Notes under the pieces: generated by a model
The model's database searches: none
What the model was told of the DNA's origin: nothing
Seen by the model: the letters and a program-made list of their open reading frames with translations, nothing else
Assembly: GCA_041742135.1 (NCBI GenBank)
Contig: JBGSJG010000004.1
Span: 45,975 to 109,974 of the forward strand
Direction of reading: 5' to 3'
Source of the DNA: Patescibacteria group bacterium
GTDB lineage: Bacteria > Patescibacteriota > Microgenomatia > UBA8517
DNA length: 64,000 bases
In this document: positions 7,036 to 38,204 of the stretch, piece by piece
Position numbering within the stretch: the stretch's first letter is position 1
How the letters are laid out: each line of letters opens with the position of its first letter
Made by a program: the position numbers and the translations under genes

Positions 7036-8051
7036 TGAAAGTTCAAACTTTTGAGGAGATCGATCTTACTGGCAAGAGAGTTTTAGTGAGAGCTGACTTG
7101 GATGTTCCGTTTGAAGGCACAGAGGTCCGCGATGATTCTAGAATCGTAAACTGCACTCCCACCTTTAAGCGAATTTTGGAAAAAGGAGCAGCCCAGCTTT
7201 TAATTTTGGGGCATATTGGCAAATACGAAGGAGAGGAAAAAACCGTGTCGACTGAGTTTTTAGTTCCAACTTTGGAAAAATTACTTGGGGAGAGTGTGAA
7301 GTTTGTATCCGGAATGCCTCCAACGGGAGAGCTGGCGGGCAGAATAATCTTATTAGATAACGTCCGAAAAGACCCCAGAGAAGAACAAAATAGCGATGAG
7401 TTTTCGAAGGGAATTGCACGACTTGCCGACACTTATGTTAACGAAGCTTTTGCTACTTCTCACAGAGAGCACTCTTCAATTGTTGGCATTTCAAAATTTC
7501 TACCTAAGTACGCTGGGATTCGTTTCGCGCGTGAAGTGGAAACACTCTCGGAGATTTTGGAAAATCCAAAAAAGCCAGTTGTGGCGCTAATTAGTGGAAT
7601 TAAGAGAGATAAATTAACTTATATAAATAATTTTTTGGGCTTTTCCGATCGCATTTTAGTTGCAGGGAGGCTTCCTGAGTACATTGAGGACAACGATCCT
7701 CTGAGAAGTAACTCGAAGGTGGTTGTTGCTCGATTGATTCCAGACAAGGAGGATATAACAATTCATGCGATCGAGGCATTCGAACAGGAAATTGACCGTG
7801 CGGAAACTGTGATTGTCGCTGGAGTTTTGGGCAAATATGAAGAAGAGGGTCACAGGCAGGGGACGAAGCGCGTGTTTGAAAAAGTGGCAAATTCTAGCGC
7901 ATATAAACTTATGGGCGGAGGAGACTCTGAAGCCGCCGCATCGCTTTTTGGCATAACTGACAAATTTGACTGGATTAGTACGGGTGGAGGCGCCATGCTT
8001 GAGTTTTTGGCAAAAGGAACTTTACCTGGGATTGAAGCATTGATACACTGA
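7035..8051 (+). CDS. pgk: phosphoglycerate kinase (short, 338 aa)
   Basis: GKRVLVRADLDVP N-terminus. GGGDSEAAA...GGGAMLEFL C-terminal motifs. ATGA overlap with rpiB. Confidence 0.85.
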   Translation: MKVQTFEEIDLTGKRVLVRADLDVPFEGTEVRDDSRIVNCTPTFKRILEKGAAQLLILGHIGKYEGEEKTVSTEFLVPTLEKLLGESVKFVSGMPPTGELAGRIILLDNVRKDPREEQNSDEFSKGIARLADTYVNEAFATSHREHSSIVGISKFLPKYAGIRFAREVETLSEILENPKKPVVALISGIKRDKLTYINNFLGFSDRILVAGRLPEYIEDNDPLRSNSKVVVARLIPDKEDITIHAIEAFEQEIDRAETVIVAGVLGKYEEEGHRQGTKRVFEKVANSSAYKLMGGGDSEAAASLFGITDKFDWISTGGGAMLEFLAKGTLPGIEALIH

Positions 8052-8054
8052 ACT

Positions 8055-9170
8055 ATGATTAAGGTAGGAATAAATGGATTTGGAAGAATTGGCAGGCTTG
8101 CGTATCGTGTGGCGCTTAGCAAGCACACGGGCGAGATTGAAATTGCGGCAGTGAACACTTCAGGATCGATGAACACGGCAGGTTGGGCGCATTTGGTCAA
8201 CTACGACACGATGTATCGCAGGTTTGAGCACGAAGTTCATGCTGAAGAAATTCGTGACCCAAAAGAAGTAACTGATGAAAATCCTGAGATTGGAAAACTT
8301 AAAACCGAGGGCCATGAAACTGTCGTACTTGCTCAAAGAGAGCCAGACAAAATTCCATGGGGCAAATACGGGGTAGATGTAGTGATCGAATCTACTGGAA
8401 AATTTATTAAAGAAGAGGATGCTAAAAAACATGCAGTGGGTGGAGCCAAGAGGGTAGTAATTTCAGCCCCTTCCAAAGGTGGCAATGTGGGGACTTATGT
8501 CTTGGGTGTAAATGATTACCCTTCGACAAGCTCAGGGCAAGCAGCTCCTACTGTCATATCAAATGCTTCTTGCACCACAAACTGTGTTGCCCCTGTGGCC
8601 TCAGTAATTCATAGTAACTTTGGAATAGAAAAAGCCATGATGACTACGGTTCACGGCTATACTGATGATCAAAACCTTCAAGATAATTCTCACAAAGACT
8701 TGCGCCGTGCTCGTGCGGCTGCTGTAAACATTGTGCCTACTTCCACAGGCGCAGCTATCGCAACAACCGAAACCATCCCCGAACTCAAAGGAATTTTTGA
8801 TGGAATGAGTCTTCGTGTGCCTGTAATTACGGGTTCAATTACTGACTTCACATTCCTTCTTAAAAAAGTTGTAACCATCGAAGAGGTGAATGAGGCTTTT
8901 AAAAAAGCTGCCGAGAATGCGCTATACAAAGGCATTCTGGCAGTAAGCGAGGAGCCATTGGTTAGTAGTGACATAATTGGAAGAAGCGAATCGGCAATAG
9001 TGGATTTGGGATTAACTCAAATTGTCGACGGAAACATGCTTAAAGTTTTTGCTTGGTATGACAACGAATGGGGATATACCAATAGACTTGTCGAACAAGT
9101 TATTCGAGTAGGAAGGACTCTTGAAACTCAAACTGCCCCAAGCGACCCGATAACGCTTTCTCATCAATGA
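8055..9170 (+). CDS. gap: glyceraldehyde-3-phosphate dehydrogenase
   Basis: INGFGRIGR Rossmann motif. Catalytic SNASCTTNC segment. Confidence 0.9.
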   Translation: MIKVGINGFGRIGRLAYRVALSKHTGEIEIAAVNTSGSMNTAGWAHLVNYDTMYRRFEHEVHAEEIRDPKEVTDENPEIGKLKTEGHETVVLAQREPDKIPWGKYGVDVVIESTGKFIKEEDAKKHAVGGAKRVVISAPSKGGNVGTYVLGVNDYPSTSSGQAAPTVISNASCTTNCVAPVASVIHSNFGIEKAMMTTVHGYTDDQNLQDNSHKDLRRARAAAVNIVPTSTGAAIATTETIPELKGIFDGMSLRVPVITGSITDFTFLLKKVVTIEEVNEAFKKAAENALYKGILAVSEEPLVSSDIIGRSESAIVDLGLTQIVDGNMLKVFAWYDNEWGYTNRLVEQVIRVGRTLETQTAPSDPITLSHQ

Positions 9171-9814
9171 AAGACATCGAAATAATTCCTGGCATTTTGA
9201 CCAACAATTCCGAAGAGCTTCGTTCTCTTTTGGCGCGTGCAACGGGCGTGGCAAAACGAGTTCATATAGATATTATCGATGGCGTTTTTGCTGGCAATAA
9301 AACTATCGATCCGTCGGTACTAAACAATATCGACAATTCACTTTTAATTGATTTTCATTTGATGGTAAAAAGCCCCATAAGCTGGCTTGAAAAGTGTTTG
9401 CAAGCTGGAGGAGCTCGTGCGATTGGTCAAGTAGAAAGGATGAATGACCCGGAAGAGTACGTTAAAAAGTGCCAAGGATTGGGATTGTCTCCCGGGTTGG
9501 CATTGGATCTAACTACCCCGGTGGATTATATTGAGCCTCGGATTTTGATGGATGTGGACGTTGTACTTCTAATGAGTGTTCCGGCTGGCTACGGAGGGCA
9601 GAAATTTGAAGACTCGGTTTTAACAAAAATTAAGGAATTAATAGAAATTCGCGGGCGAGACTCTCAGCCTTTTAAAATAATTGATGATGGGGGGATAGTT
9701 TTATCAAACGTTGACGATGTCGCTCGAGCTGGTGTTGACGAGGTAGTAATTGGCCAGAGAATTTTTGAAGGGGATTTGAAAGACAATATCGCAAAATTTA
9801 AAAGTGCCGCATGA
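9167..9814 (+). CDS. rpe: ribulose-phosphate 3-epimerase
   Basis: HIDIIDGVF...DFHLMV motifs. Start overlaps the gap stop. Confidence 0.85.
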   Translation: MKDIEIIPGILTNNSEELRSLLARATGVAKRVHIDIIDGVFAGNKTIDPSVLNNIDNSLLIDFHLMVKSPISWLEKCLQAGGARAIGQVERMNDPEEYVKKCQGLGLSPGLALDLTTPVDYIEPRILMDVDVVLLMSVPAGYGGQKFEDSVLTKIKELIEIRGRDSQPFKIIDDGGIVLSNVDDVARAGVDEVVIGQRIFEGDLKDNIAKFKSAA

Positions 9815-20487: not shown

Positions 20488-21510
20488 ATGAAATTATTCG
20501 GTCGTAGAAAAAAAGAAGAAGACGACGTAGAATCCAAAGAACCTAAGGATCTTGAGAGGCCCAAGCGCATTCGCAAAAAGAAAGAGGAGCCGCCAAAGCC
20601 TTGGGGACGCTCTGAGCGCTACTTGGTACTTGGCGTACTTGGAGTGACTGTTATAGGGGCTGCATTTTTAGCTCTTTCCGCGCGTGAATGGAAACTTCCT
20701 GGCCTGCCTCGTCTGGGGCTTCCTAAAGGCATGCTTGAGCAAAGCTATGTCTTGGAAGGTGAAGTACCCGCAAAGGACACGAGTCTTATTATCAGTGAGT
20801 TTAATCGTTTGACACAAGAGTTGTCAGGAGTATACGGCCTTTATGTGGCAAACCTAAACACCGACGCTACTTATGGCATAAATGAAGGAGAAGAGTTTGA
20901 AGCGGCTTCACTTATGAAGCTTCCCGTAATGGCAATGATGTATTCGATGCACGAAAATGGTGACATTGACTTGGATGATGTTTATTCGCTGAAGGATACG
21001 GATCGAGTTGGAGGGTCGGGGAGCATTGTTTATCAGCCTACGGGAACTGAATACTCCTATCGTGAGCTGGTTGATTACATGGGGCAACAATCTGACAACA
21101 CTGCTCTTCGCGCCTGTTTAAATTTACTGGGTGAGGGGAATGTAGAAAATTATATACAAAGCATTGGAATGACCAATACATCTTTTGCTGATAACTCAAC
21201 AACTCCGCGTGACATTGGATTGTTTTTTAAAAAGCTTTGGACCGCCAAGTTAGTCGAGAAGAAAAATCGTGACGCAATACTAAAGTCTTTGACAGATACG
21301 ATTTACGAAGACTGGATTCCACTTGGAATACCAGAAGTTCGCGTTGCTCATAAATTTGGCCGAGAGGTGCATGTGGTGAACGATGCTGGTATTGTCTTTG
21401 GCTCAGACCCTTTTGTTTTGGTAATTATGAGTAAAGGTGTTTTGGAAAAAGAAGCTGACGAATTTATTCCGGCGATGGCGTCGGTCGTGTACAATTTTGA
21501 GGCACGCTAG
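20488..21510 (+). CDS. class A beta-lactamase-like serine hydrolase, membrane-anchored, K-rich N-terminus
   Basis: SLMK (SxxK) and SDN motifs. HKFG approximates the KTG triad element. Confidence 0.55.
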   Translation: MKLFGRRKKEEDDVESKEPKDLERPKRIRKKKEEPPKPWGRSERYLVLGVLGVTVIGAAFLALSAREWKLPGLPRLGLPKGMLEQSYVLEGEVPAKDTSLIISEFNRLTQELSGVYGLYVANLNTDATYGINEGEEFEAASLMKLPVMAMMYSMHENGDIDLDDVYSLKDTDRVGGSGSIVYQPTGTEYSYRELVDYMGQQSDNTALRACLNLLGEGNVENYIQSIGMTNTSFADNSTTPRDIGLFFKKLWTAKLVEKKNRDAILKSLTDTIYEDWIPLGIPEVRVAHKFGREVHVVNDAGIVFGSDPFVLVIMSKGVLEKEADEFIPAMASVVYNFEAR

Positions 21511-23515
21511 ATTCTTCTAAAAACCATTCAGTTCGCCCACATACTTTTTTTTGTACCAAACCAGCGGGTATTTCCCAGGGATGATTACTCGCGTCGGCTA
21601 CTAAATTTGTCATTATTGAATTCCAAATTGGTGAAGCACCGGTGATTCCGGACGCCACTCGGCTCATGGGAGCATTGTTATTATTGCCCACCCAGACTGC
21701 CACTAGATAGTTTTGATTGTAGCCAACAGTAAGATTGTCGCGCAGATCATTGCTTGTTCCAGTTTTGACAGCGATTTCACGATGATTTGGAATTACAAGC
21801 GCAGAATGGCTCCCAAAAGCTGGGGAGCGTGCATCATTGTCGCGAAGAATATCAGTCAAGATAAAGGCGACTCTGGGGTCTAGGGCCTGGGTTTCTGTTG
21901 GCTTATGTGTGAATATTACTTTGTCTTCAGAGTTTTTTATTTCTTTTATTGCCGAAAATTCTGGACGGTTACCGCTATTGGCTAGGGTTGTATATACGCT
22001 TGAAAGCTCAAGAAGTGTCACTTCACCACCTCCAAGAGTTAGGGATAACCCGAACCGTGACGGGTCACTCCATGAATTAATTCCCATTTTTCGACCCATT
22101 TGAATCATGTTACTAACTCCAATTGAATTTAGTACACGAACGGCTGGAATATTTCTTGACTCGGCCAAGGCACTTCGAAGAGTTATCTTGCCACGATATT
22201 TATTGTCATAATTTTTGGGAACATATGGCTGTGTTCCCGCGGCTTCAAATTTGACAGGGCTATCATCAAGTAGCGTCATCGCTGTGAAGCCGTGCGACAA
22301 GGCGTAAGCGTAGTTAACAACTTTTATTGAAGACCCGGGCTGTCGCGGCATGAGGGTTACGTTCACGTTTCCGTCAATGTCTTGAGCAAAGTAATTTTTC
22401 GATCCAACCATCGCAAGAATTTCCCCTTTTTTTGGGTCTATCACCAAAGCTGCGCCGTTACCCACCTTTAGGTTTGTCAATTTATCAACTTCGCGGGCAA
22501 CTGCTTCTTCGGCCAAATTTTGAATATTTATGTCAAGAGTTGTGGTAACTTCGTAGCCTTTGGTAAAAATTTCTTCGCCATACATTTTTACTAAAAGTTC
22601 TCGAACATAAAATACAAAATGTGGAGCTTTAATATCGGTTGTGTGAGGGACAACCTCGACATGTTCTGTCATTGCCTCGTCATATCGTGGTCCGGAAATA
22701 TACCCTTCGTTTTTCATGAGTCCCAAGACTTCATCTTTTCGTTTTTGGGCCAAATCTGGATCTGTGCCGTGTGGGGAAAGCAGACTTGGGCTTTTGGGAA
22801 GGCCAGCTAAAAGAGCGGCTTGGGCAAGGCTGAGCTCGTTTATAGGCTTATTAAAATAATATTGTGACGCTTCGGCAATTCCGTAGGCCGTTCCGCCATA
22901 ACTTACTTCGTTTAGGTACATTTCAAGTATTTCATCTTTTGAGTATTTTTGCTCCACCGCGATCGCAATTAAAACCTCACGGACTTTTCGCCACAAGGTC
23001 TTTTCAGGCGACAGAAGGGCATTTTTAACCAATTGCTGTGTAATTGTCGATCCGCTAGTTATTCTGCCGTCTTTGGCAAATTTTATTATCGCCCTCCCCA
23101 TACCTTTTATGGAAAACCCGGGATGATTGTAAAATTCTGCGTCTTCAGCGGCTAGTGTCGCAAGCCGTACATGCAGAGGAACATCCGCGAGGTGCACTAG
23201 TGTTCTGTCTTTGTCTTTAAAAAGTTTGTATAGAAGAACTCCATTTTTGTCGTAAATTTTTGTTGTAACATCGATGTTTCTTTTCGAAAGCTCATCAGGG
23301 CGAGGAAGACTGCGCATAAAAAAATTCCAAAAAAAAGCTACAGACAAATAAAATATCAAGATGGAAAGGATAAGAGAGAGGGTGATTTTTGGAAGTACTC
23401 CACGCAAAGAAATTTGTGATATAGCAAACACTATAAGAGATATCCCTACGAACCCAAAATATAATGGAAGCCCGATAATACGGAATATTTTCGCAATAAC
23501 GTTTCTAGGACCCAC
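21464..23515 (-). CDS. class A penicillin-binding protein (glycosyltransferase GT51 + transpeptidase)
   Basis: EDAEFYNHPGFS GT51 motif. Transpeptidase SxxK/SxN region. N-terminal TM. Confidence 0.85.
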   Translation of the reverse strand: MGPRNVIAKIFRIIGLPLYFGFVGISLIVFAISQISLRGVLPKITLSLILSILIFYLSVAFFWNFFMRSLPRPDELSKRNIDVTTKIYDKNGVLLYKLFKDKDRTLVHLADVPLHVRLATLAAEDAEFYNHPGFSIKGMGRAIIKFAKDGRITSGSTITQQLVKNALLSPEKTLWRKVREVLIAIAVEQKYSKDEILEMYLNEVSYGGTAYGIAEASQYYFNKPINELSLAQAALLAGLPKSPSLLSPHGTDPDLAQKRKDEVLGLMKNEGYISGPRYDEAMTEHVEVVPHTTDIKAPHFVFYVRELLVKMYGEEIFTKGYEVTTTLDINIQNLAEEAVAREVDKLTNLKVGNGAALVIDPKKGEILAMVGSKNYFAQDIDGNVNVTLMPRQPGSSIKVVNYAYALSHGFTAMTLLDDSPVKFEAAGTQPYVPKNYDNKYRGKITLRSALAESRNIPAVRVLNSIGVSNMIQMGRKMGINSWSDPSRFGLSLTLGGGEVTLLELSSVYTTLANSGNRPEFSAIKEIKNSEDKVIFTHKPTETQALDPRVAFILTDILRDNDARSPAFGSHSALVIPNHREIAVKTGTSNDLRDNLTVGYNQNYLVAVWVGNNNNAPMSRVASGITGASPIWNSIMTNLVADASNHPWEIPAGLVQKKVCGRTEWFLEESSVPQNCTRPTPSPE

Positions 23516-23543
23516 TTTAATAATATTATCAAAAACCCTATAG

Positions 23544-25838
23544 TCAGTGAAGAGGATATTTTACTGAAACTTGTAGCATTGGGCCTGTGCAATCAAGGCA
23601 TATAACCGTCTCTAGTGGATCGCGGATTATCAAATGGCTTTCGGGATGTACCTGCTCTGGAAGAGCTTCGGCGTTGGCAAGGTTTCCAGTATCGTTAAAA
23701 ACCAGTACGTCTTGGCGAATAGCACTGCCTTCAGGTACAGTGTCAGCCAGATAGTACTCAAACCGAGTAGGGCAATCGTGAGTAGCATCGTTGGGTATGG
23801 CGCCAGTTGTGGCACAAACACTTGCCCCCACAACGTCGCTCGGTTGTTTTGGCCAAGCATGGCCTTTTTCTTCGGAAGAGTAGTAACCGCTCTCGGCTTT
23901 GCTTAAAACTTCTTTCATAATTTTATTCCATATAGGTGATGCTCCTGAAACGCCGGATACCGCGCCTCCCATGGGGGAGTTATCATTGTTTCCCACCCAA
24001 ATTAATGTAAGCGCTTGCTCGGTATAGCCAATTGTCCAGTTGTCACGCCCGTCGTTTGTGGTACCTGTTTTGACGGAAACTTCTGGGTGGCCGGAAACTA
24101 CCAAGTAGGAGCTGCCTCCAAAAGCAGCACTTCTGGCATTATTATCGTGGAGAATATGCGAGATAATAAATGCCGGACCGGGATCCATGACACGATCTCC
24201 TTCAATATCGGCATTGGGCTTTTTTTCATAAAGAACTTGGCCTTTCCAGTCTGTGATCTTAATGAAAGCTGAGAATTCCTTTTTGACTCCCTGATTAGCG
24301 AGGGTTGAGAAAGCCTGCGCCATGTCAATTGGGCGCACCTCGCCACCACCTAAGGTCAAAGAAAGACCATAATCAGAAGTGTTGTTAAACGTTGTAATAC
24401 CCATTTTTCCAGCAAAGTCTATGAACTCTTTGAGACCATTTAGGGCTAAAACGCGGACCGCTGGGATATTGTATGAGTTGCCAAGAGCGAACCTAGTTTG
24501 AGTCGCACCATGGAAGCTTCCATCGTAATTTTTGGGGCAATAAGCGGCTTGGCCTAAAACATTAAAACATGTAGGAATATCAGCTAGGGGAGTGCTTGCA
24601 GTAATTGTTTTGTTTTGGATCGCAAGAGCATAGTTTAAAGGTTTGATTGAAGATCCTGGTTGGCGAAGAGCAAAAATAATATTTACCTTACCGTCTTCAT
24701 CTTGGGCAAAATAGTCTTTCGAGCCGACCATGGCGAGGATTTCGCCTGTATTGGGCTTGACCACAAGAGCTGCTCCATTGCCCACTTTAAGTTCCGAAAG
24801 CTTGTCAACTTCGGCAAAAACAGCTTCTTGAGCGTGCTCTTGTAACTCCAAATCCAAAGTAGTTGTAACTCGCAAGCCCCCTTGCTCCACGACAGCCTCA
24901 CCGTACTCTTCGGCCAATTGCTCTTTTATCCACAGCACGAAGTGGGGTGCTTTGAGGGAAGTTGGCTCGGCATAGACAATCTCTGAATCGCGAGCCGCAT
25001 CTGCTTCTTCCTGGCTAATGTGGCCATCCTCGACCATTCGGGCTAGTACGGTTTTTTGCCGATCACGCGCAAGCTCTGGGCGCGAACCAAAAGGCGAGTA
25101 TCTACTCGGAGCTGCTGGGAGGCCAGCCAATAGCGTGGCCTCAGAAAGTGTTAAGTCTTTTGCCTTTTTACCAAAATACATCTCACTTGCAGCCTCGATC
25201 CCGTACGAGGTCGAGCCGTAAGGAATTTGATTTAAATACATACTTAATATCTCGTCTTTGGAGTATCTTGCCTCGACAATAAGAGCCAAGACAAACTCGC
25301 GGATTTTGCGCCTTACAGTGCGCTCTGGGGACAAAAGTGTGTTTTTGACAAGCTGTTGGGTGAGTGTTGAGCCACCCTCTAGCTTTTGCCTAAAAAGATT
25401 TTTATATAGTGCTCGAGCCATACCTGTCACCGAAAAACCGGGGTGCTTATAAAAATCTTTATCTTCGATTGATATTGTGGCGTCTACAACATAGTCGGGA
25501 AGCTCCGAAATGTCGATTGGCGAGCGGCGCTTGTCAGCAAATATTTCATAAACAAGCTCTCCATTGCGGTCAAAAATCTTTGTAGATACTGGTTCTTGTT
25601 CTTTAAAAAGTCCCGCTATTGGAAGCCCCCAAAAGACCCAAACACCAAAGCCTCCGAGTAAAACACTCATAAGTACTATTGGGATAGCGATTTTTTTGGA
25701 AACTTTTAGCTTTCTCGGAAGCTTAAACTTAAGCCTAGGCACGCTGAGTTGTTTTCTTGGTTTTGCTTTCTTGGTTACTTTGACAATTTGCTTGTCTCGG
25801 GCCAGCTTTTTAGATAGTTTTTTTGCACTTTTTGCCAT
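23544..25838 (-). CDS. class A penicillin-binding protein paralog with C-terminal extension
   Basis: EDKDFYKHPGFS GT51 motif. Transpeptidase domain. K-rich N-terminus plus TM. Confidence 0.85.
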   Translation of the reverse strand: MAKSAKKLSKKLARDKQIVKVTKKAKPRKQLSVPRLKFKLPRKLKVSKKIAIPIVLMSVLLGGFGVWVFWGLPIAGLFKEQEPVSTKIFDRNGELVYEIFADKRRSPIDISELPDYVVDATISIEDKDFYKHPGFSVTGMARALYKNLFRQKLEGGSTLTQQLVKNTLLSPERTVRRKIREFVLALIVEARYSKDEILSMYLNQIPYGSTSYGIEAASEMYFGKKAKDLTLSEATLLAGLPAAPSRYSPFGSRPELARDRQKTVLARMVEDGHISQEEADAARDSEIVYAEPTSLKAPHFVLWIKEQLAEEYGEAVVEQGGLRVTTTLDLELQEHAQEAVFAEVDKLSELKVGNGAALVVKPNTGEILAMVGSKDYFAQDEDGKVNIIFALRQPGSSIKPLNYALAIQNKTITASTPLADIPTCFNVLGQAAYCPKNYDGSFHGATQTRFALGNSYNIPAVRVLALNGLKEFIDFAGKMGITTFNNTSDYGLSLTLGGGEVRPIDMAQAFSTLANQGVKKEFSAFIKITDWKGQVLYEKKPNADIEGDRVMDPGPAFIISHILHDNNARSAAFGGSSYLVVSGHPEVSVKTGTTNDGRDNWTIGYTEQALTLIWVGNNDNSPMGGAVSGVSGASPIWNKIMKEVLSKAESGYYSSEEKGHAWPKQPSDVVGASVCATTGAIPNDATHDCPTRFEYYLADTVPEGSAIRQDVLVFNDTGNLANAEALPEQVHPESHLIIRDPLETVICLDCTGPMLQVSVKYPLH

Positions 25839-25866: not shown

Positions 25867-26373
25867 GTGAAGATAAAGTCTAAGCCTTGGTGGAATTATT
25901 TAGAGGATGATTTGAAAGAGTCGCTGGAGCTGTCGTTTTATTTGGCAACGCGCTCAAGCGAGTGGAGTAAAAAGTTTTACGATTATTCATTTATAGTCTT
26001 TCCTGCGGCAAAAGCGTATGAAGGTTTTTTGAAAAAATTGTTTTACGATATGGATCTTATATCAAAAGAAGATTATTTTGGTAAACATTTTAGGATCGGC
26101 AAAGCCTTAAATCCGGAGCTTGAAGAGCGATTCAAAGCAGAGGGTTGGGTTTATGGCCGCTTAAGCCAATTTTGCGGTGGTGACAACTTGCCGGAAACTC
26201 TGTGGCAGACATGGAAGCAATCAAGAAATCTTCTTTTTCATTGGTTTCCGAACGAAAAAAATACAGTAAGCCACAACGAGGCAGTCGAGAGGCTTTTGAC
26301 CATAACCAATGCAATAGATACAGTTTACTCGGTATGTCCTGTACAATTAAACAAAGGTAAGTATGGGCAGTAA
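25867..26373 (+). CDS. hypothetical protein, possible HEPN-like (RNxxxH)
   Basis: SRNLLFHWF fits the HEPN R-[N]-x3-H motif. No other recognisable domain. Confidence 0.3.
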   Translation: MKIKSKPWWNYLEDDLKESLELSFYLATRSSEWSKKFYDYSFIVFPAAKAYEGFLKKLFYDMDLISKEDYFGKHFRIGKALNPELEERFKAEGWVYGRLSQFCGGDNLPETLWQTWKQSRNLLFHWFPNEKNTVSHNEAVERLLTITNAIDTVYSVCPVQLNKGKYGQ

Positions 26374-27806: not shown

Positions 27807-28250
27807 ATGAAATGTCCGTTTTGCACAAATTCAAGTTCACAAGTGCTGGAGTCCAGAACAGTAGAAGAGGGTAAAGCAATACGCAGGAGGCGCGAATGCG
27901 AACACTGCGGTAAACGATTTACTACTTACGAAAGGACAAAAAGTAGTGTACTTTGGATTATCAAAAAGGATGGGAAACGCGAACCTTTTGATAAAGACAA
28001 AGTAAGACGAGGGATTTTGAGGGCTATCGAGAAGCGTCCGGTGTCACTCGACTTAGTCGAGGACATTGTTTCTGATCTCGAGCGGGAGATGCTTAAAAAA
28101 GAGAGAGCCGAGATTCCTTCGAAAGTGATTGGTAGGGCGATTATGAGGAGGCTTAAGCGGATTGATAAGGTTGCATGGCTCAGGTTCGCAAGTGTATATT
28201 TGGAGTTTGAAGATGTAAGTGATTTTGAAAAAGCAATCAATAAAATATGA
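27807..28250 (+). CDS. nrdR: transcriptional repressor NrdR
   Basis: MKCPFCTNSSSQVLESR...CEHCGKRFTTYE zinc ribbon plus ATP-cone. Confidence 0.9.
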   Translation: MKCPFCTNSSSQVLESRTVEEGKAIRRRRECEHCGKRFTTYERTKSSVLWIIKKDGKREPFDKDKVRRGILRAIEKRPVSLDLVEDIVSDLEREMLKKERAEIPSKVIGRAIMRRLKRIDKVAWLRFASVYLEFEDVSDFEKAINKI

Positions 28251-30823
28251 CAAAAAACGGTTTAGATAAGACAAAAAAAGGTGATTTTCGCGATGAACGC
28301 AAGTCTAAACTCTTCTTTGTACCCAAAGATGAGCTAACCTCCAAGACGGAACTTGAAGATCTTCGAAAGACCGTGTTTATGGATCGCTATTCTCTTCGCG
28401 ACGCGGATGACACGCCAATGGAGCAGTACCCCGAGCAAATGTGGACGAGAGTGGCCAAAGGTGTCTCGCAATTTGAGAAAAATAAAACGCTTCAGGCAAA
28501 GTGGGAAAAGAAATTTTATTCTGTTATGAAAGACTTTAAGTTTGTTCCTGCAGGGCGTATTTTGTCGGGCGCTGGAACTGGTTATGAAGTGACTTTTTTC
28601 AACTGCTACGTAATTCCTTCTCCTAGTGACTCTCGAGGTGGAATTATGGAAAACATTACCCAAACTGTTGAAATTCAATCTCGCGCTGGCGGAGTAGGGG
28701 TAAACCTCTCGACTCTTCGCCCCCGTGGGGCACGCGTCAGAAAAGTAAACGGCACAAGTAGCGGCCCTGTTAATTGGGCGGCACTATACTCAACAGCTAA
28801 TCACGATGTCATTCAACAAGGCGGAAGCCGCCGCGGCGCCCTGATGCTCATGCTTAACGATTGGCACCCCGATGTTGAAGAATTTATTCGTGTTAAAGAA
28901 GATCTGACTAAAATCCCGGGAGCCAACTTGTCTGTATGTGTAACTGACAAATTTATGGATGCGGTCAAGGCTGATGGCAATTGGGATCTTATTTTCCCAG
29001 ATTATGCCAACACTCCCGATTATGATGATTTTTGGGATGGAGACATAGATAAATGGATTGAATCTGGCCGCAAAGTCACGGTCTATAAAACCGTCAAAGC
29101 TCGCGAAGTATGGGACATGATTGCCGGCGCGGCGTGGAGGAGTGCTGAGCCCGGGCTTCACTTTATTGAGCGAAGTAATAAAAGAAGCAACACCTATTAC
29201 TTTGAAAAGCTCATTGCCACAAATCCCTGTGGTGAGCAGCCTCTAGGGGCTTGGGCGGTGTGTAACCTTGGTGCCATGAATTTAACCGCGTATGTTAAAA
29301 AGGATGGCAGTTTTGACTACGAATCTCTTGAGCGCGATGCCTCAGTTGCGATGCGTTTTATGGACAATGTGATTGAAGCGAATTTCTACTTTTACTCCGA
29401 AACATATGAATCTCAAATGGATATTAGGCGCACGGGCTTGGGAACAATGGGCCTTGGGGATGCGCTTATTATGATGAAAATCAAATACGGCTCGGACGAG
29501 TCTGTGAGGGTGATTGAGAAAATCTATAAGACAATTCGCGATTCAGCTTATCGCACCTCTGCACTTTTGGGAGCTGAAAAAGGTGTGTTTAGAAAATTTG
29601 ATCGCGATAAATATCTTAATGCTTGGTTTGTAAAAAGATTGCCAGAGGACGTTCGTGAATCCATTTCCAAAAATGGCATCCGAAATGCTGTACTTTTGAC
29701 CCAAGCCCCCACAGGAACTACATCGCTTTTGGCAGGAGTGAGCTCCGGAATCGAGCCTGTATACAATTTTGAATTTAAACGTAAAGATCGAACAGGGGAG
29801 CATATTGTCTACCATCCACTATTTGAGGCATGGAAGAAAGAGCACCCCAGTGAGCCCAAGCCAGAGCACTTTGTATGTGCCATGGATTTGTCCCCCGAGG
29901 AGCACTTGAAAGTTCAAGCAAAGGTTCAGGAATATACCGACAGCTCTATTAGTAAAACCGTGAATGCCCCCGAGAACTATTCGGTGGATGATGTTCGAGA
30001 ACTTTATACGAAAGCCTATGAATGGGGTTGTAAAGGTATAACCTTTTTCCGTGATGGATCCCGCGCTGGAGTTTTGGAAAGTGTCAAAGAGGAAAAGCCA
30101 AAAGAAACCTCTGCGGATGCACCGGCGAGAGTTGAACCAGAAAAAGAGCCAGAGCCTGTGGTGGCAAGTGCACCTATCCGTGAGGCAGATCAGTTGGCAC
30201 TGCCAGTGTCGCCTGAGGCTGGAGCAAGACTTATTAATCGCCCGTTTGTGGTTCACGGAGCTACTTATAAACTTAAAACTCCAGTAGGGACGGCATTTAT
30301 CACCATCAATAACGATGACGCAGGGGAGCCTTTGGAAATGTTTATTAATATCGGTAAAGCCGGAAGCGACGTCAGCGCCTTTGCAGTGGCTTTGGGTCGC
30401 ACGATTTCTGCTTCACTTCGGTTCAGAAGCACGCTTTCAGCTAAAGAGCGAGCCTTGGAGATTGCGGAGCAGCTTAAAGACATTGGAGGCCGCCGCTCAG
30501 TTGGCTTTGGCCAGAGCAGAATTCGCTCGCTTCCAGATGCCATAAGTGTAGCTTTGACTACTCATTTTGGTTTTACATTAAATGGTAACGGGCTTCACAC
30601 AAATGGCCATTCGCAGGACAAAGTAACTTTGACGCAAAATGAGACGGAGCTTATGGGTGTAGGAGCTTTGGGAGTGGATAACCCCGGAGGGCAAGTTATG
30701 ATGATGGCTGAGGAGCCCCAGTATGGGGCCAAGGTGGACCTCTGCCCCGAGTGCGGTGAACATACACTAGTTTTTGAAGAAGGCTGCGCCAAGTGCTACT
30801 CGTGTGGCCATGCTGAGTGCTAG
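28247..30823 (+). CDS. nrdJ: ribonucleoside-diphosphate/triphosphate reductase, class II (adenosylcobalamin-dependent)
   Basis: NPCGEQPL catalytic motif. 858 aa. C-terminal CxxC...CxxC tail. ATGA overlap with nrdR. Confidence 0.9.
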   Translation: MTKNGLDKTKKGDFRDERKSKLFFVPKDELTSKTELEDLRKTVFMDRYSLRDADDTPMEQYPEQMWTRVAKGVSQFEKNKTLQAKWEKKFYSVMKDFKFVPAGRILSGAGTGYEVTFFNCYVIPSPSDSRGGIMENITQTVEIQSRAGGVGVNLSTLRPRGARVRKVNGTSSGPVNWAALYSTANHDVIQQGGSRRGALMLMLNDWHPDVEEFIRVKEDLTKIPGANLSVCVTDKFMDAVKADGNWDLIFPDYANTPDYDDFWDGDIDKWIESGRKVTVYKTVKAREVWDMIAGAAWRSAEPGLHFIERSNKRSNTYYFEKLIATNPCGEQPLGAWAVCNLGAMNLTAYVKKDGSFDYESLERDASVAMRFMDNVIEANFYFYSETYESQMDIRRTGLGTMGLGDALIMMKIKYGSDESVRVIEKIYKTIRDSAYRTSALLGAEKGVFRKFDRDKYLNAWFVKRLPEDVRESISKNGIRNAVLLTQAPTGTTSLLAGVSSGIEPVYNFEFKRKDRTGEHIVYHPLFEAWKKEHPSEPKPEHFVCAMDLSPEEHLKVQAKVQEYTDSSISKTVNAPENYSVDDVRELYTKAYEWGCKGITFFRDGSRAGVLESVKEEKPKETSADAPARVEPEKEPEPVVASAPIREADQLALPVSPEAGARLINRPFVVHGATYKLKTPVGTAFITINNDDAGEPLEMFINIGKAGSDVSAFAVALGRTISASLRFRSTLSAKERALEIAEQLKDIGGRRSVGFGQSRIRSLPDAISVALTTHFGFTLNGNGLHTNGHSQDKVTLTQNETELMGVGALGVDNPGGQVMMMAEEPQYGAKVDLCPECGEHTLVFEEGCAKCYSCGHAEC

Positions 30824-30880
30824 AAAATCCTCAAATCATCCTCGCCTTGGATAAATGGTAAGATTTATTTATCACTACTT

Positions 30881-31873
30881 ATGTCAGAGGATGGGCAGAT
30901 CATCAAACCAGAAGATATCGGCATTGAACCTGAAACAGTAATTCATGAGAAATCTGACGGGTCGGTTATGGGAGGTTTGTACGCCGCTCCCTGGGGAAGC
31001 TCGACAGGAAACCATGAGATTTTTATAGACACAATCGACTCAGAAAGAAGCGCAACTCTACAAAGAATAACAAGAGCAGCTGATAATATTAGAAACCCAA
31101 ATCAAACAACAGAAATTAACGGGTTGTTCTCTGCTTCTGAACGGGAGGTTGTTGCATCAAGACTGGAAGAGATATCAGAAAAATTACTAATGGATGAAGC
31201 TTACCGGAAATCTATGGTTGATCTCATGAGAATGCACGAAGAAATGCATAGGCTTAGAGAAGTGAGAATTCCCTCTAGTGGGTTTAATGTCGAAGATTCT
31301 GTGATGGACCACTTAGCCGATGGAATGGATGACGAGGAGGATTACAGTCAATTATTGAACAATTACTACAAAGGTTTAAATCAATTCGCGATTTACGATG
31401 AAACTTACGCACAGATTGGTGGAATTAGAAATGCTTACGGTGAGAGTGATCAAGATGTTAGGCGGGATTTTGTCTTTATGTCTTTTGCATTTTCTGCGCA
31501 AGAATTACTGGCAAGCAGCGAACCTGATATTTTAGGCAGTCTTTATAAAGTTCATCAAAATCCCACAATACCATTTCTTTTACCAAGTCATGAATTATCA
31601 AAAATTATTATAGCGTCTGGGGCGGGGGACTTGTCAGCTAAAGCGATGCGTGGAGAAATTTCTGAAAGTGAGTACAAGCAAATCGCAAGAACTTCAATTA
31701 AACGAGCTGTTTTAACCCCAGAATCAATTCTTTTCGAACTTGATAATAAAAACAGTCTGGTGATTGAGGTCGATCGTTGCTTGGGTGATAGCGCAAGATT
31801 AGTTAATGAATCTGTTTTACAAATGAATAGTGCCTATGAAAACAGTCAGCAAAGTGCTGGTAGTGAGCAATAA
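30881..31873 (+). CDS. acidic hypothetical protein (orphan ORF inside duplicated nrdJ 3' ends)
   Basis: 330-aa ORF with no recognisable motifs. Confidence 0.4.
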   Translation: MSEDGQIIKPEDIGIEPETVIHEKSDGSVMGGLYAAPWGSSTGNHEIFIDTIDSERSATLQRITRAADNIRNPNQTTEINGLFSASEREVVASRLEEISEKLLMDEAYRKSMVDLMRMHEEMHRLREVRIPSSGFNVEDSVMDHLADGMDDEEDYSQLLNNYYKGLNQFAIYDETYAQIGGIRNAYGESDQDVRRDFVFMSFAFSAQELLASSEPDILGSLYKVHQNPTIPFLLPSHELSKIIIASGAGDLSAKAMRGEISESEYKQIARTSIKRAVLTPESILFELDNKNSLVIEVDRCLGDSARLVNESVLQMNSAYENSQQSAGSEQ

Positions 31874-31881
31874 ATTTACAT

Positions 31882-31926
31882 GAAGGCTGTGCCAAGTGTT
31901 ATGCTTGCGGACATAGTGAATGTTAG
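31882..31926 (+). repeat. second copy of the last 15 codons of nrdJ (EGCAKCYACGHSEC*), diverged mainly at synonymous sites
   Basis: Compare 30779-30823. Differences are mostly third-position or conservative (S/A swaps). Confidence 0.8.
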
Positions 31927-31951
31927 TTCGCAAATATAACGAGTGAAACGA

Positions 31952-31980
31952 GTTACTCCTGCGGCCACGCAGAGTGCTAG
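31952..31980 (+). repeat. third partial copy of the nrdJ 3' end (..YSCGHAEC*)
   Basis: 29-nt match with synonymous substitutions, 25 nt downstream of copy 2. Confidence 0.7.
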
Positions 31981-32014
31981 GATAAACTCCGTATTTGTGG
32001 TAAAATCACGAACT

Positions 32015-32455
32015 ATGAGTTTAGAAAGGTATCCCGACAACCGCCTCGATGACATTCCAGATCAAACACACTTTCCAGAGATAGTTGACGATTTGTGTCG
32101 TCTTTATGATTCTCACAATGGTCTATCACTTTTGGATCTTGATGAGATCGGTATATCAGTGCCTGGGTTCTTAGAAGTACGACCCAGGGTCAGTTCGCAA
32201 GATCAGAATTCAGGCGAGGAATACAATTGGTTTGCGGTTTTTGTGTTTAATGTTGATGGCAGCGAAGTCCGCGCAGCAATTCCTTGGAGAAATGACAGTG
32301 ATCGGGCTGGCGATGTGGCGCTAGGGAGGTCAATTACGTTTTTTGCTCCAGAAGGCATTGATAATGAAAAGGTAGAAGGATTAGCTCAGGAGCTGTTTGA
32401 TTCTCTAAACGCTTATACAAAGAAGCAATTTTTACCTCCTGATATGGTAAATTAA
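32015..32455 (+). CDS. hypothetical protein
   Basis: Start placed at MSLERYPD. The upstream part of the track ORF reads through the nrdJ-end repeat in another frame. Confidence 0.35.
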   Translation: MSLERYPDNRLDDIPDQTHFPEIVDDLCRLYDSHNGLSLLDLDEIGISVPGFLEVRPRVSSQDQNSGEEYNWFAVFVFNVDGSEVRAAIPWRNDSDRAGDVALGRSITFFAPEGIDNEKVEGLAQELFDSLNAYTKKQFLPPDMVN

Positions 32456-32456
32456 C

Positions 32457-33002
32457 TTGATGCCTATCTATACCAAAAAAGGGGACAAGGGGGAGACGGG
32501 GTTAATTGCCCAAAACCCAGAAGAGAAAATTCGAGTATCAAAAGACTCGGCTCGTGTTGAAGCCATCGGAGCAATTGATGAGCTTAATTCTTATCTTGGA
32601 GTTTGTCTTTCGTTTAGCAATATTCCCGAGCGCGCACCATTTTTGAAAGCGATTCAAGTGAATCTTTTTACTATAAACTCGATACTGGCTGGGAGTGACC
32701 TGAAATTTAATAAAAGCCACACCACACGATTGGAAAAGGAAATCGATAAAATCGACCTCAAAGTTACAAAACTTACGACTTTTGTAATGCCTGCTGGGAC
32801 TGTGTTCGCAACTCATTTGATGTATGCTCGCACACTAGCACGAAAAGCCGAGAGGCGCGCTGCAGGGCTTGCCAAAATCGAAAAAGTTCACCCAAATATT
32901 TTGATGTATCTAAACAGACTTAGTGACATGATTTTTACGCTTTTCCGAGAAGCCAATCACGAAGCGGGAATCCCTGAGACTTATTGGAAGGGCAAGCCCT
33001 AA
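32457..33002 (+). CDS. ATP:cob(I)alamin adenosyltransferase, PduO/MMAB type
   Basis: MMPIYTKKGDKGETGL...SKDSARVEAIGAIDELNSYLG, the classic PduO-type N-terminus. Confidence 0.85.
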   Translation: MMPIYTKKGDKGETGLIAQNPEEKIRVSKDSARVEAIGAIDELNSYLGVCLSFSNIPERAPFLKAIQVNLFTINSILAGSDLKFNKSHTTRLEKEIDKIDLKVTKLTTFVMPAGTVFATHLMYARTLARKAERRAAGLAKIEKVHPNILMYLNRLSDMIFTLFREANHEAGIPETYWKGKP

Positions 33003-33844
33003 CAACCTTCGTAAACGCCGTCGCATTTCGGACAGTGATCTCCCGCCGACATATATCCATTAATTGAGGCGCCGCAGTTGCCACAATTTTTGACATACTT
33101 TTTCTCACCACTTGCAGGCGAGTAAATTAAGAGTCTTGCTCCACTAGTACTTAAGTTTGCAAAAGTCTTCATGCCAACGGGGCAGCTTATGGGGTTTTCC
33201 CCCAGAAACCCTGATGTTTGCATCTCCTGAACTACAAGTTCGGGGGCGATACCCGCTCGAATTTTTTCTGCGAAATATTCTGCATTACTACGATTTGTTG
33301 GTTGAAGCACCTCTGGTTTTTTGTGTGACACAGACTCGATCCAGGTAAGTACCGCAAAGTATGTTTCATCTTCGTCTGGTGCGCTAATTAAGACACCTCT
33401 TTGTTCCTCGGGCTTAGGAATTTCTCCGTCGTATAGGATTGCAGAGTAGAGGAGAACCTTTTGCATTTTTTCGTTATAAACAATTTGATAAATCATTGTT
33501 TTGTTGCAGGGATAAACCCCTTCGAGTTTTGGGCTATGCCAGATAAAGACTCCTTCTTCTGTCTCTGCAACGCGTTTTTGAAGTTCCTGGGCAATTTGAT
33601 ATTCAACGCCGGGTGCAATGTGGGAAAGTATCGGGTCGCCCGTGTCCTCATCTATTAAAACTCCATCTTGGATTAGGTAAGGACGCGAATCTGGTGTGCG
33701 GTTGGTTTCGTTCGAGATACTTAGAAGTCTTGTTGTTAAGTCTTCTTTTTTAATGGATGGGTCTACCCAGTCGGAGGTCACCCAATTTAAAACCGTAACT
33801 TCGGGTGATTCTGCAAACGATGGTCTGATATCTACTGCCAACAT
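32999..33844 (-). CDS. hypothetical protein with C-terminal double zinc-ribbon (CGNCG...CPKCDG)
   Basis: Cysteine pairs at the C-terminus. No catalytic motif recognised. Confidence 0.4.
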   Translation of the reverse strand: MLAVDIRPSFAESPEVTVLNWVTSDWVDPSIKKEDLTTRLLSISNETNRTPDSRPYLIQDGVLIDEDTGDPILSHIAPGVEYQIAQELQKRVAETEEGVFIWHSPKLEGVYPCNKTMIYQIVYNEKMQKVLLYSAILYDGEIPKPEEQRGVLISAPDEDETYFAVLTWIESVSHKKPEVLQPTNRSNAEYFAEKIRAGIAPELVVQEMQTSGFLGENPISCPVGMKTFANLSTSGARLLIYSPASGEKKYVKNCGNCGASINGYMSAGDHCPKCDGVYEGC

Positions 33845-36887: not shown

Positions 36888-36998
36888 GCGCAAAAATGGG
36901 CCTGTCGTTCAATGGTAGGACACCATTCTTATAAAGTGGACACGAAGGTTCGATTCCTTCCAGGCCCACATTTTTGCGATATATCGTGATGCGTTATA
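36883..36998 (+). mobile_element. 106-nt insertion in the anticodon loop of tRNA#2, carrying an intact tRNA gene
   Basis: Flanked by 10-nt inverted repeats CGCAAAAATG (36889-36898) and CATTTTTGCG (36969-36978), and by a duplicated TTATA (36883-87 and 36994-98). Confidence 0.4.
36898..36968 (+). tRNA. tRNA, anticodon UAU (Ile-type, AUA-reading) by manual cloverleaf; no encoded CCA
   Basis: Acceptor GGGCCTG/CAGGCCC. D-stem GTTC/GGAC. Anticodon stem CCATT/AGTGG, loop CTTATAA. T-arm GAAGG-TTCGATT-CCTTC. 71 nt. Confidence 0.6.
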
Positions 36999-37124: not shown

Positions 37125-37340
37125 ATGACAAAAGACGAAAAGAAAAAATACGACACTCTGGTAGAGGAACACAAGAAAGTTGCCGAGAAGTTAGAGTTTC
37201 TTCACAGAGGATTTCGGGGAGTGAGCCACGAAAATTCTGCTGCTGAGATGCGCTACACTACAATTCAGGTGTACGAAGCCCATCTTAAAAGTATCGAGGA
37301 AGCCATGAAACTACTGATTGCTGATGAGAAAAGCTTATAA
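37125..37340 (+). CDS. small charged hypothetical protein
   Basis: 71-aa ORF (MTKDEKKKYD...) between the tRNA-end repeat and the integrase. Confidence 0.3.
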   Translation: MTKDEKKKYDTLVEEHKKVAEKLEFLHRGFRGVSHENSAAEMRYTTIQVYEAHLKSIEEAMKLLIADEKSL

Positions 37341-38204
37341 CTCTTCTAGCCTTGGCGAGTGGCCACTTTCTTTTACGTTGGCAATTTGAAGATAGCGCTC
37401 TGTGGTTGATAGTCTTCTATGTCCTGCCGCTTGAGAAATAGTTACAAGGTCAACACCTCTTTTAATGTTTTCAATCAAAAAAGTGTTGCGAAGGTCGTTG
37501 ACCGAAAACTCAGAAAGCTCTGCTCTTTGAAGATATCTGTCAATTAAGGCTCGAATATTTCTTATTGCTAGTGGGTTGCCCGTTTTACTGACGAATAAAT
37601 AAGGAGAAGTAGCATCGCTTCGCTCGCGAAGATAATCCTCAATTGCGGCTCTGGCGGTTTTATTTAGAGGAATTCTGCGCTCTGGTTGAGTAGCATATGC
37701 GTCGATAACCACTTCATCCCTTTTAACATCAGACACTTTTAAGTTTGCAACTTCCGATATTCGCATGCCAGTCTGAAGAATTAGTTCAATCATTGCAGCG
37801 ACTTTACGGTCATATTTTGCTGTATCACGAAGCGATCGGTACTCAATGGGGGACAAATATCCGGGCTCTGGGGCGTTAATTTCTGGGTGGCTTACTTCGC
37901 GCGACGGATCTTCCTCGATGTAGCCTTCATCTTTTACCCAACGGAAAAAAGTTTTCACCGCGTTAAGTTTTCGCGATGTCGATTTTGGGGTATATTTATG
38001 AGACAAAAGATGATCACGAAAACCCTCCAAGTCTCGCAAGGTTATGTTTCTCGGGTCGACAACGCTCTTGTGGCTCAAGTATTCAGTTAGCTGTTCCAAA
38101 TCGGAGCCATAAGCTAGAATGGTGGAAGGGGAGCGCTTTTTGTCTGTAAGTTCTTGAATAAATCTTGGCACAAGGTCGCCTAAAGTGACGCTAAATTGGT
38201 TCAT
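37335..38204 (-). CDS. tyrosine site-specific recombinase (phage-integrase/XerCD family)
   Basis: N-terminal SAM-like core-binding domain (TILAYGSDLEQLTEYL). C-terminal R...HRRLSTTERYLQ catalytic signature. Confidence 0.8.
   Translation of the reverse strand: MNQFSVTLGDLVPRFIQELTDKKRSPSTILAYGSDLEQLTEYLSHKSVVDPRNITLRDLEGFRDHLLSHKYTPKSTSRKLNAVKTFFRWVKDEGYIEEDPSREVSHPEINAPEPGYLSPIEYRSLRDTAKYDRKVAAMIELILQTGMRISEVANLKVSDVKRDEVVIDAYATQPERRIPLNKTARAAIEDYLRERSDATSPYLFVSKTGNPLAIRNIRALIDRYLQRAELSEFSVNDLRNTFLIENIKRGVDLVTISQAAGHRRLSTTERYLQIANVKESGHSPRLEEL

Follow-up and report, generated by a model that had tools for sequence, protein, structure and literature searches.

Displaced nrdJ gene ends beside a rare HExxH-family gene at the nrdJ-PduO junction of a Patescibacteria genome

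The stretch of DNA analysed here (the window; 64,000 nucleotides, nt) comes from a Patescibacteria group bacterium (assembly GCA_041742135.1, contig JBGSJG010000004.1, positions 45,975 to 109,974 of the forward strand). It carries nrdJ, which encodes a class II ribonucleotide reductase, and repeats of the 3' end of this gene lie downstream of it, beyond an open reading frame (ORF) of 330 amino acids (aa) named ORF330. The features of the locus are listed below in window coordinates; copies 2 and 3 and their counterparts in related loci (L numbers) are referred to as relics.

27807..28250, + strand: nrdR, Zn-ribbon and ATP-cone repressor, the upstream neighbour (Pfam Zn_ribbon_NrdR 7e-21, ATP-cone 1e-18)
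28247..30823, + strand: nrdJ, class II (B12-dependent) ribonucleotide reductase, 858 aa, with a Cys-rich C-terminal tail (Pfam)
30779..30823, + strand: copy 1, the functional nrdJ end, 15 last codons including the stop, EGCAKCYSCGHAEC and stop
30881..31873, + strand: ORF330, member of a rare HExxH family, cargo between copies 1 and 2
31882..31926, + strand: copy 2, displaced nrdJ end, 15 codons including the stop, EGCAKCYACGHSEC and stop
31898..31940, + strand: hairpin in which the 5' part of copy 2 pairs with the beginning of the spacer (inverted tail copy), from folding as RNA and as DNA
31927..31953, + strand: spacer S, 27 nt, between copies 2 and 3
31954..31980, + strand: copy 3, displaced nrdJ end, nine last codons including the stop, YSCGHAEC and stop
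32015..32455, + strand: ORF146, orphan ORF 3' of the relics, status uncertain
32460..33002, + strand: PduO-type cobalamin adenosyltransferase, the right-hand neighbour of nrdJ (Pfam Cob_adeno_trans 1.5e-44)

The nrdJ product matches Ribonuc_red_lgC (8e-120), Ribonuc_red_lgN and TSCPD in Pfam, and its domains are a ribonucleotide reductase barrel, an all-alpha domain and TSCPD. The tail repeats downstream of this gene are confirmed as real. A degenerate pattern for the ending CGHxEC-stop (TGYGGNCAYNNNGARTGYTAR) matches the window three times, at copies 1 to 3, and 0.00 matches are expected from 100 shuffles. No other ORF among the 71 in the window with 120 aa or more is followed, as nrdJ is, by a copy of its own last eight codons and stop. 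Copy 1 is identical to the nrdJ end of the closest relative, L001, at 41 of 45 nt. Copy 2 begins 8 nt after the ORF330 stop and is identical to copy 1 at 34 of 45 nt, in agreement with a preliminary description of this DNA, in which the last 15 nrdJ codons were said to recur at 31882-31926. That description also placed a partial copy at 31952-31980; this copy is present, with 23 of 27 nt identical to copy 1, and its start is at 31954.

The differences between the copies follow codon positions. Copies 1 and 2 differ at 2, 1 and 8 sites in first, second and third codon positions, respectively, with two serine/alanine swaps, and the four differences between copies 1 and 3 are all synonymous third-position changes. 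When five diverged pairs of a real tail and a relic were pooled, third positions accounted for 38 of 48 differences (P about 1e-10), and the change was synonymous in 34 of the 39 codons that differed, with serine switches between TCN and AGY among them. A scan of about 80 nrdJ loci with flanks of 7 kb yielded no half-decayed relics. With differences that are overwhelmingly synonymous, the relics are coding ends from other nrdJ alleles, frozen in that state, and not decayed local duplicates. Judging by these substitutions, the relics in the window, L057, L078 and L079 derive from other coding nrdJ alleles, in line with the earlier proposal that the copies diverged while coding elsewhere. No donor allele was identified in the sample; the nearest real tails match copy 2 at 38 of 45 nt and copy 3 at 24 of 27 nt.

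Several other origins for the copies were rejected. A diversity-generating retroelement, already thought improbable, is not supported, because none of the 11 differences between copies 1 and 2 falls at an A of copy 1 and the differences follow codon position rather than adenines; no reverse transcriptase turned up in the scan of neighbouring ORFs, which make up part of the window. Small ORFs or products of readthrough, frameshifting or bypass were discarded because the relics occupy inconsistent frames (0, +1 and +2) and a stop lies directly upstream of the L078 relic. Phage nrdJ genes end differently (e.g. in CGSSKCG-stop) and lack relics, so a phage origin was likewise rejected. Apparent relics further away, at +5 to +6 kb in L014 and L076, proved to be chance matches inside other reading frames.

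ORF330, which has a GC fraction of 0.39, inside the local range, has no match in Pfam, NCBIfam, PHROGs or the PDB sequences, and a word-indexed search of 5.8e9 proteins returned only the protein itself. A full HMMER scan of 1.8e9 representatives recovered six homologs with 25–29% identity. The gene had been described as an orphan with no recognisable domain, and this description is not supported, since the protein is one of a small family linked to the locus. Residues H119, E120 and H123 of an HExxH motif, together with E127, R129 and E174, are invariant in the alignment of the seven sequences. The AlphaFold2 model built on this alignment (pLDDT 85, pTM 0.86) has a small N-terminal sheet followed by helices. 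The fold, modelled with confidence, is mostly helical and regarded as new, and the protein is possibly a zincin-like hydrolase.

No nuclease (LAGLIDADG, HNH, GIY-YIG or PD-(D/E)xK) or recombinase domain or fold was found in ORF330, and a homing endonuclease gene that was transferred together with a gene end was rejected as there is no nuclease domain or fold. Such a case exists in fungal mitochondria, where a mobile ORF inserted in Allomyces atp6 comes with a replacement 3' end for the gene and encodes the homing endonuclease that drives the event. The arrangement in atp6, with a gene body, a foreign C-terminal piece, the inserted ORF and the displaced native C-terminal piece, is like that of the window. 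However, ORF330 is without nuclease features.

Genes of the ORF330 family are found at the nrdJ-PduO junction in the window, L007, L009, L090 and probably L091. To judge from these occurrences, ORF330 represents a real but rare family that is tied to this junction. The order in L007 is nrdR-nrdJ-ORF322-PduO, with one nrdJ end only. In L091, the gene before ORF294 is DUF1653-like, of a type also present in the L001 islet, and the homologs in L092 and L093 have an unrelated context.

The nearest genome, L001, is a Candidatus Woesebacteria metagenome-assembled genome in which the C-terminal part of nrdJ is 80–82% identical to that of the window; over the C-terminal 358 residues, identity is 82% to L001 and 81% to L007. 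The conserved gene order is a CPBP-type (Rce1-like) protease, a hypothetical gene, nrdR, nrdJ and then PduO, and the synteny of nrdR is kept in 56 related loci. PduO lies downstream of nrdJ in 59 loci, separated by 0–450 nt in 45 of them and by no more than 41 nt in 17; an adjacency without the insert had been predicted for some relatives. The short gap in most loci indicates that the tight junction is the original state. Larger inserts vary by lineage. L001 carries AbrB/PIN, NUDIX and aminoglycoside-phosphotransferase-like genes, L009 has HD, MazE/PIN and others, and L002, L029, L031 and L043 have a DUF4430-like gene with a membrane protein. Further loci have inserts with MazG-like, DUF1653-like and four-helix-bundle genes. 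On this comparison of gene orders, the nrdJ-PduO junction has turned into an insertion hotspot.

A near-identical AbrB/MazE-PIN toxin-antitoxin pair occurs in the nrdJ-PduO islet of both L001 (7094-7731) and L009 (7301-7941), and the other insert genes of these two loci differ. The shared pair suggests that modules are exchanged inside the islet.

A duplicated end of a flanking gene brackets three independent ORF330-family genes, with the nrdJ side involved in two cases and the PduO side in one. In L090, the nrdJ end is followed by ORF315 and then, abutting the ORF315 stop, by an ORF with the reading MPHLTPKELDNRLEKAKKEADLCPECGEHSLVFEEGCAKC... that represents a second nrdJ tail, 63 nt or more in length. 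The arrangement in L009 is mirrored, in the order nrdJ, five other genes, a PduO 5' relic, 24 nt, ORF331 and the real PduO. The L009 relic (ATGGCGATTTATACAAAGAAGG, MAIYTKK) comprises about 22 nt at 7955-7976 and is located 46 nt upstream of ORF331, and the real PduO start (MSIYTKK) is at 8993. Compared with the PduO start of L012, which lacks an ORF330 gene, the relic is identical at 19 of 22 nt, and all three differences are at third positions. The 330-aa protein is thus found elsewhere beside nrdJ-end repeats, as had been anticipated; the family gene with a single nrdJ end in L007, on the other hand, speaks in part against the preliminary description. The scars at ORF330-family genes measure 45 nt of nrdJ in the window, at least 63 nt of nrdJ in L090 and about 22 nt of PduO in L009. 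This variation in length and the scar on the PduO side do not fit a single fixed attachment (att) core for the ORF330 scars, and a fixed attachment site is not supported.

The L090 sequence is a Logan contig of 1153 nt with an identical 26 nt of nrdJ tail at both ends (1-26 and 1128-1153). These ends are ambiguous, as two genomic tail copies fit and a circle or a looped assembly path is also compatible.

Short relics directly 3' of nrdJ are also present in other lineages in the scan. The L087 relic is 27 nt long, with a spacer of 30 nt and one difference, and the L062 relic is 24 nt long, with a spacer of 25 nt and two differences. L057 and L063 carry a relic orthologous to that of L062 in which the last Cys codon has become a stop; spacer and relic are identical in these two independent assemblies. 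The relics of L078 and L079 measure 24 and 27 nt. The 5' boundary of the relic is at -27 in copy 3, L087 and L079 and at -24 in L062 and L078. Relic length peaks at 24–27 nt, and relics of 9–21 nt show no excess over expectation.

In the window, GTTATGCTTGCG matches the reverse complement of the spacer at 10 of 12 positions (shuffle p = 0.04). A spacer that opens with an inverted copy of the preceding tail is likewise seen in L087 (p = 0.017) and L057 (p = 0.0007), and the three tests combine (Fisher) to about 6e-5, for a test that is post hoc, its design having followed inspection of the data. In L062, L078 and L079 the inverted repeat does not reach significance. L057 has an 18-bp hairpin (z -4.1). 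Spacer length is close to relic length (27 and 27 nt in the window, 25 and 24 nt in L062, 30 and 27 nt in L087), and the start of the relic coincides with the hairpin base. The idea of a hairpin as a general feature after nrdJ was rejected: across 79 loci the mean duplex z-score is about 0, with L057 and L063 as the sole outliers. Together, copy 2, spacer and copy 3 make up a single 'tail, inverted tail, tail' module that once ended a functional nrdJ. The same module is found without cargo in four other lineages, with the boundary at 24–27 nt. Copy 3 had been interpreted as the displaced end of a second cargo-bearing element, and this does not hold for a compact module that is cargo-less elsewhere.

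The relics of the sister lineages L078 and L079 differ at 7 nt, and all of these differences are synonymous. Their otherwise unalignable spacers have in common the motif AATG(Y)TTAG(Y)C(Y)ACGAAGTGGTCGCA (L078:2206-2228, L079:3603-3625), and the conserved 14 nt are complementary to the Cys-Gly-His codons of the tail. The motif may begin with a further decayed relic of the ending EC-stop.

The interpretation preferred here, which is given about an even chance of being correct, is that the cassette was gained by recombination that is homologous on one side only and anchored in nrdJ or PduO, with no self-integrating element. Accessory DNA of diverged relatives would enter the nrdJ-PduO junction with one of these two genes as the homology anchor. 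Homologous exchange would occur at one side, and the other end would be joined illegitimately inside the terminal codons of the resident gene. The incoming DNA would provide a complete replacement gene end, and the resident end would be stranded as a short, non-functional and still codon-like relic. In the window, the incoming 3' part of nrdJ, ending in copy 1, would have been joined together with ORF330 at a point 45 nt upstream of the resident stop, and this joining would have stranded copy 2 with its downstream spacer and copy 3 already in place. The spacer and copy 3 would have been left by an earlier event of a second kind, before the whole module was displaced by the block of copy 1 and ORF330. 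For the origin of the module, the layout and the synonymous differences might be reconciled if the recombining donor was diverged and had the hairpin in its tail beforehand. From the elements with a replacement 3' end envisaged in the preliminary description, this account retains the incoming replacement end, ORF330 as cargo and the displaced host end; an integrating element is not supported.

The variable scar length, the scars on either flank and the lack of mobility genes fit one-sided recombination of this homologous/illegitimate type. Homology-facilitated illegitimate recombination is an established route in which one end is homologous and the other illegitimate (PMC3240628). It similarly operates without mobile-element machinery and accounts for scars of variable length on either flank with no mobility genes. 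The route has been described from laboratory transformation and conjugation, whereas one junction would be used recurrently in nature here. To our knowledge, such recurrent natural use with displaced-end footprints has not been described for nrdJ/PduO or for Patescibacteria. The illegitimate, homology-facilitated mechanism with its one-sided exchange and an entry of DNA resembling transformation are inferences, and so is the tentative direction given above, with one copy as the donor's and the other as the recipient's.

Several observations weigh against one-sided recombination. Real tails and the relics adjacent to them differ at 30 of 34 third positions, compared with 53% in random tail pairs of different loci (P about 1.5e-5), and this excess is left unexplained by the mechanism; it may reflect survivorship, with similar direct repeats lost through slippage or recombination. 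The boundary at -24 to -27 shared by five cargo-less relics is not predicted, and neither is the inverted tail copy in their spacers. No recombination breakpoint is detectable in nrdJ, where third positions are saturated (40–55% identity to L001 and L007 over the whole gene), and the identity of PduO by thirds is uninformative on recombination. The family gene of L007 is without a scar, and such a gene may instead have been resident by vertical descent, with other DNA inserted beside it later. With flanks of 7 kb, a large element with its far repeat beyond them would escape the scan.

Site-specific integrative elements, with an attP that carries the nrdJ end and a tyrosine or serine recombinase acting in cis or in trans, would make the inserts decayed, integrase-less remnants stacked by accretion. 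This account draws on the direct repeats of the target-gene 3' end that flank ORF330 and the L090 homolog, on the empty target site in relatives with a short nrdJ-PduO gap and on the identical L090 contig ends, which would suit a circle. The five cargo-less relics with their common boundary and no excess of shorter forms look site-specific, and an Xer-like recombinase is present in the window. However, across about 80 loci, with the inserts of about 30 related loci inspected, neither the inserts nor their immediate surroundings revealed an integrase, transposase or (homing) nuclease. The Xer-like tyrosine recombinase (37335-38204, - strand), the sole recombinase found in the window, is outside the insert, 5.4 kb away and past four genes and a tRNA, and it looks like a housekeeping gene (TIGR02225 XerD 6e-45, below the family cutoff). 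Scar boundaries at -45 and at -63 or beyond, and on the PduO side in L009, do not fit a single att core, and no nucleotide-conserved tail block usable as an att core was found beyond amino-acid constraint. The sequence between the repeats is only 25–125 nt in five lineages. Integration by such elements is therefore considered unlikely. No literature on nrdJ as an attachment site was found.

The Xer-like gene lies about 370 nt from a tRNA at 36898-36968. No link of the gene to the nrdJ repeats was found.

Precedents for integrative elements at gene ends were compared with the window. The e14 prophage at icd/icdC of Escherichia coli K-12 spans 15 kb, encodes an integrase of its own and uses a fixed att site (PMC13626634, citing Hill et al. 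1989). The likeness is that incoming DNA gives an essential gene a replacement 3' end and the old end stays as a codon-like pseudogene with mainly synonymous changes. Unlike e14, the insert here is one 1-kb gene without a recombinase, and the scars are variable and also occur on the 5' side of PduO in a relative. Cis-mobilizable elements (CIMEs) and tandem remnants left by ICEs (integrative and conjugative elements) or by integrative and mobilizable elements accrete at the 3' end of a target gene (PMC5704250), and ICESt1 and ICESt3 reside at fda (PMC3234194). The window resembles CIMEs in having integrase-less remnants between gene-end repeats, with several ends stacked in tandem. However, CIMEs need a cognate ICE integrase and a defined core, neither of which was found here, and five of the present 'elements' would consist only of the short spans given above.

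Template-switch (quasipalindrome) mutations produce copies that are identical at birth and decay neutrally afterwards. By such a local replication error, a fold-back would yield the 'tail, inverted tail, tail' layout in one step, followed by divergence that gives the copies a foreign look. Copies 2 and 3 of the window, L087 and L057 resemble this outcome, with an inverted copy beside a direct copy and common boundaries. The L057 hairpin, the agreement of spacer and relic length, the relic boundary at the hairpin base and the direct copies in L087 and L062, which are only 1–2 nt apart, are also in its favour. However, template switching cannot give copies 1 and 2 around a 1-kb gene. A non-coding copy should also decay at all codon positions, whereas most relics here differ only synonymously and none is half-decayed; the pattern of identity at origin is confined to L087 and L062. 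The inverted repeat is also not significant in three of the loci, and the test itself is post hoc. A replication error is judged distinctly improbable as the source of the copies.

A further reading, which is something of a long shot, is that the nrdJ tail and the PduO start form an integrase-free landing pad in Patescibacteria. The HExxH cassette and a hairpin-bearing 'replacement end' mini-insert of 50–60 nt would spread through it, and the displaced ends would be kept intact and maximally recoded for a role. This role might be to block repeat-mediated loss, or to provide a third arm for an RNA structure that senses translation and lies upstream of B12-regulated genes.

That the extra tail copies are functional and not scars was given very little credence. 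They would act as RNA arms, with the spacer pairing alternately with the nrdJ end or the downstream copy and coupling downstream expression to nrdJ translation, or they would serve as a reservoir for tail exchange. Frame and stop are intact in all eight relics, except for the one Cys codon changed to a stop in L057/L063, and adjacent copies are more different than random pairs. The relics of L078 and L079, with their purely synonymous differences, stand beside the conserved tail-complementary motif, and cobalamin riboswitches are located 3' of the relic in L087 and L062. Against such a function, the relics have no consistent frame, start codon or terminator, and the stop directly before the L078 relic was noted above. 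Folding z-scores are unremarkable except in L057, no Rfam family was found in 30700-32600 of the window, and the module is missing from about 90% of loci. The serine TCN/AGY switches conflict with a pairing constraint.

Cobalamin riboswitches and tRNAs are the only RNA families found in the related loci. Riboswitches of the adenosylcobalamin classes AdoCbl and AdoCbl-II are located next to PduO or just 3' of nrdJ relics (L087:8037-8166 and 9643-9711; L062:3104-3156; L001:10899-10974, - strand), and none was found in the window.

An assembly or binning artefact, in which strain variants were chimerically joined at a common nrdJ tail, is scarcely credible even though the window is from a metagenome-assembled contig of 453,693 nt and such repeats can break assemblies (compare the L090 contig ends), since copies that are only 76–85% identical, with unique sequence between them and a single orientation, are not explained by collapse or duplication of repeats in the assembler, and analogous modules occur in independent assemblies, identically in L057 and L063.

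The neighbourhood of the repeats includes further genes. ORF146 matches only itself among 5.8e9 proteins and has no family in Pfam, NCBIfam or PHROGs, and its AlphaFold2 model is poor (pLDDT 53). It is annotated publicly as a protein of 170 aa that starts at a GTG at 31943 and crosses copy 3 in another frame (31943-32455); the ATG at 32015, which is preceded by TGGTAAAAT, is the more likely start. An orphan of 281 aa (32999-33844, - strand) is convergent with PduO and ends in a zinc-ribbon-like tail of the form CxxC...CxxC; its only homolog, a very weak one (E 2e-4), occupies the corresponding position in L001. Two tandem genes for class A penicillin-binding proteins are found at 21464-25838 (- strand). 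They are followed by a small ORF (25867-26373, + strand) with weak RnlA/HEPN-like matches, and the same pair of neighbours occurs in L009.

Displaced gene ends are normally read as proof of an integrase-driven element, and here the same footprint is found without a recombinase. It is present on both flanks of one tight junction in several lineages of Patescibacteria, in which little is known of how genes are exchanged. The B12-dependent nrdJ-PduO cluster is now linked to an HExxH protein family that had not been seen before. If the one-sided recombination preferred here is true, relics of this kind would be a cheap, sequence-only marker of homology-anchored gene acquisition and of the genes that serve as its anchors.

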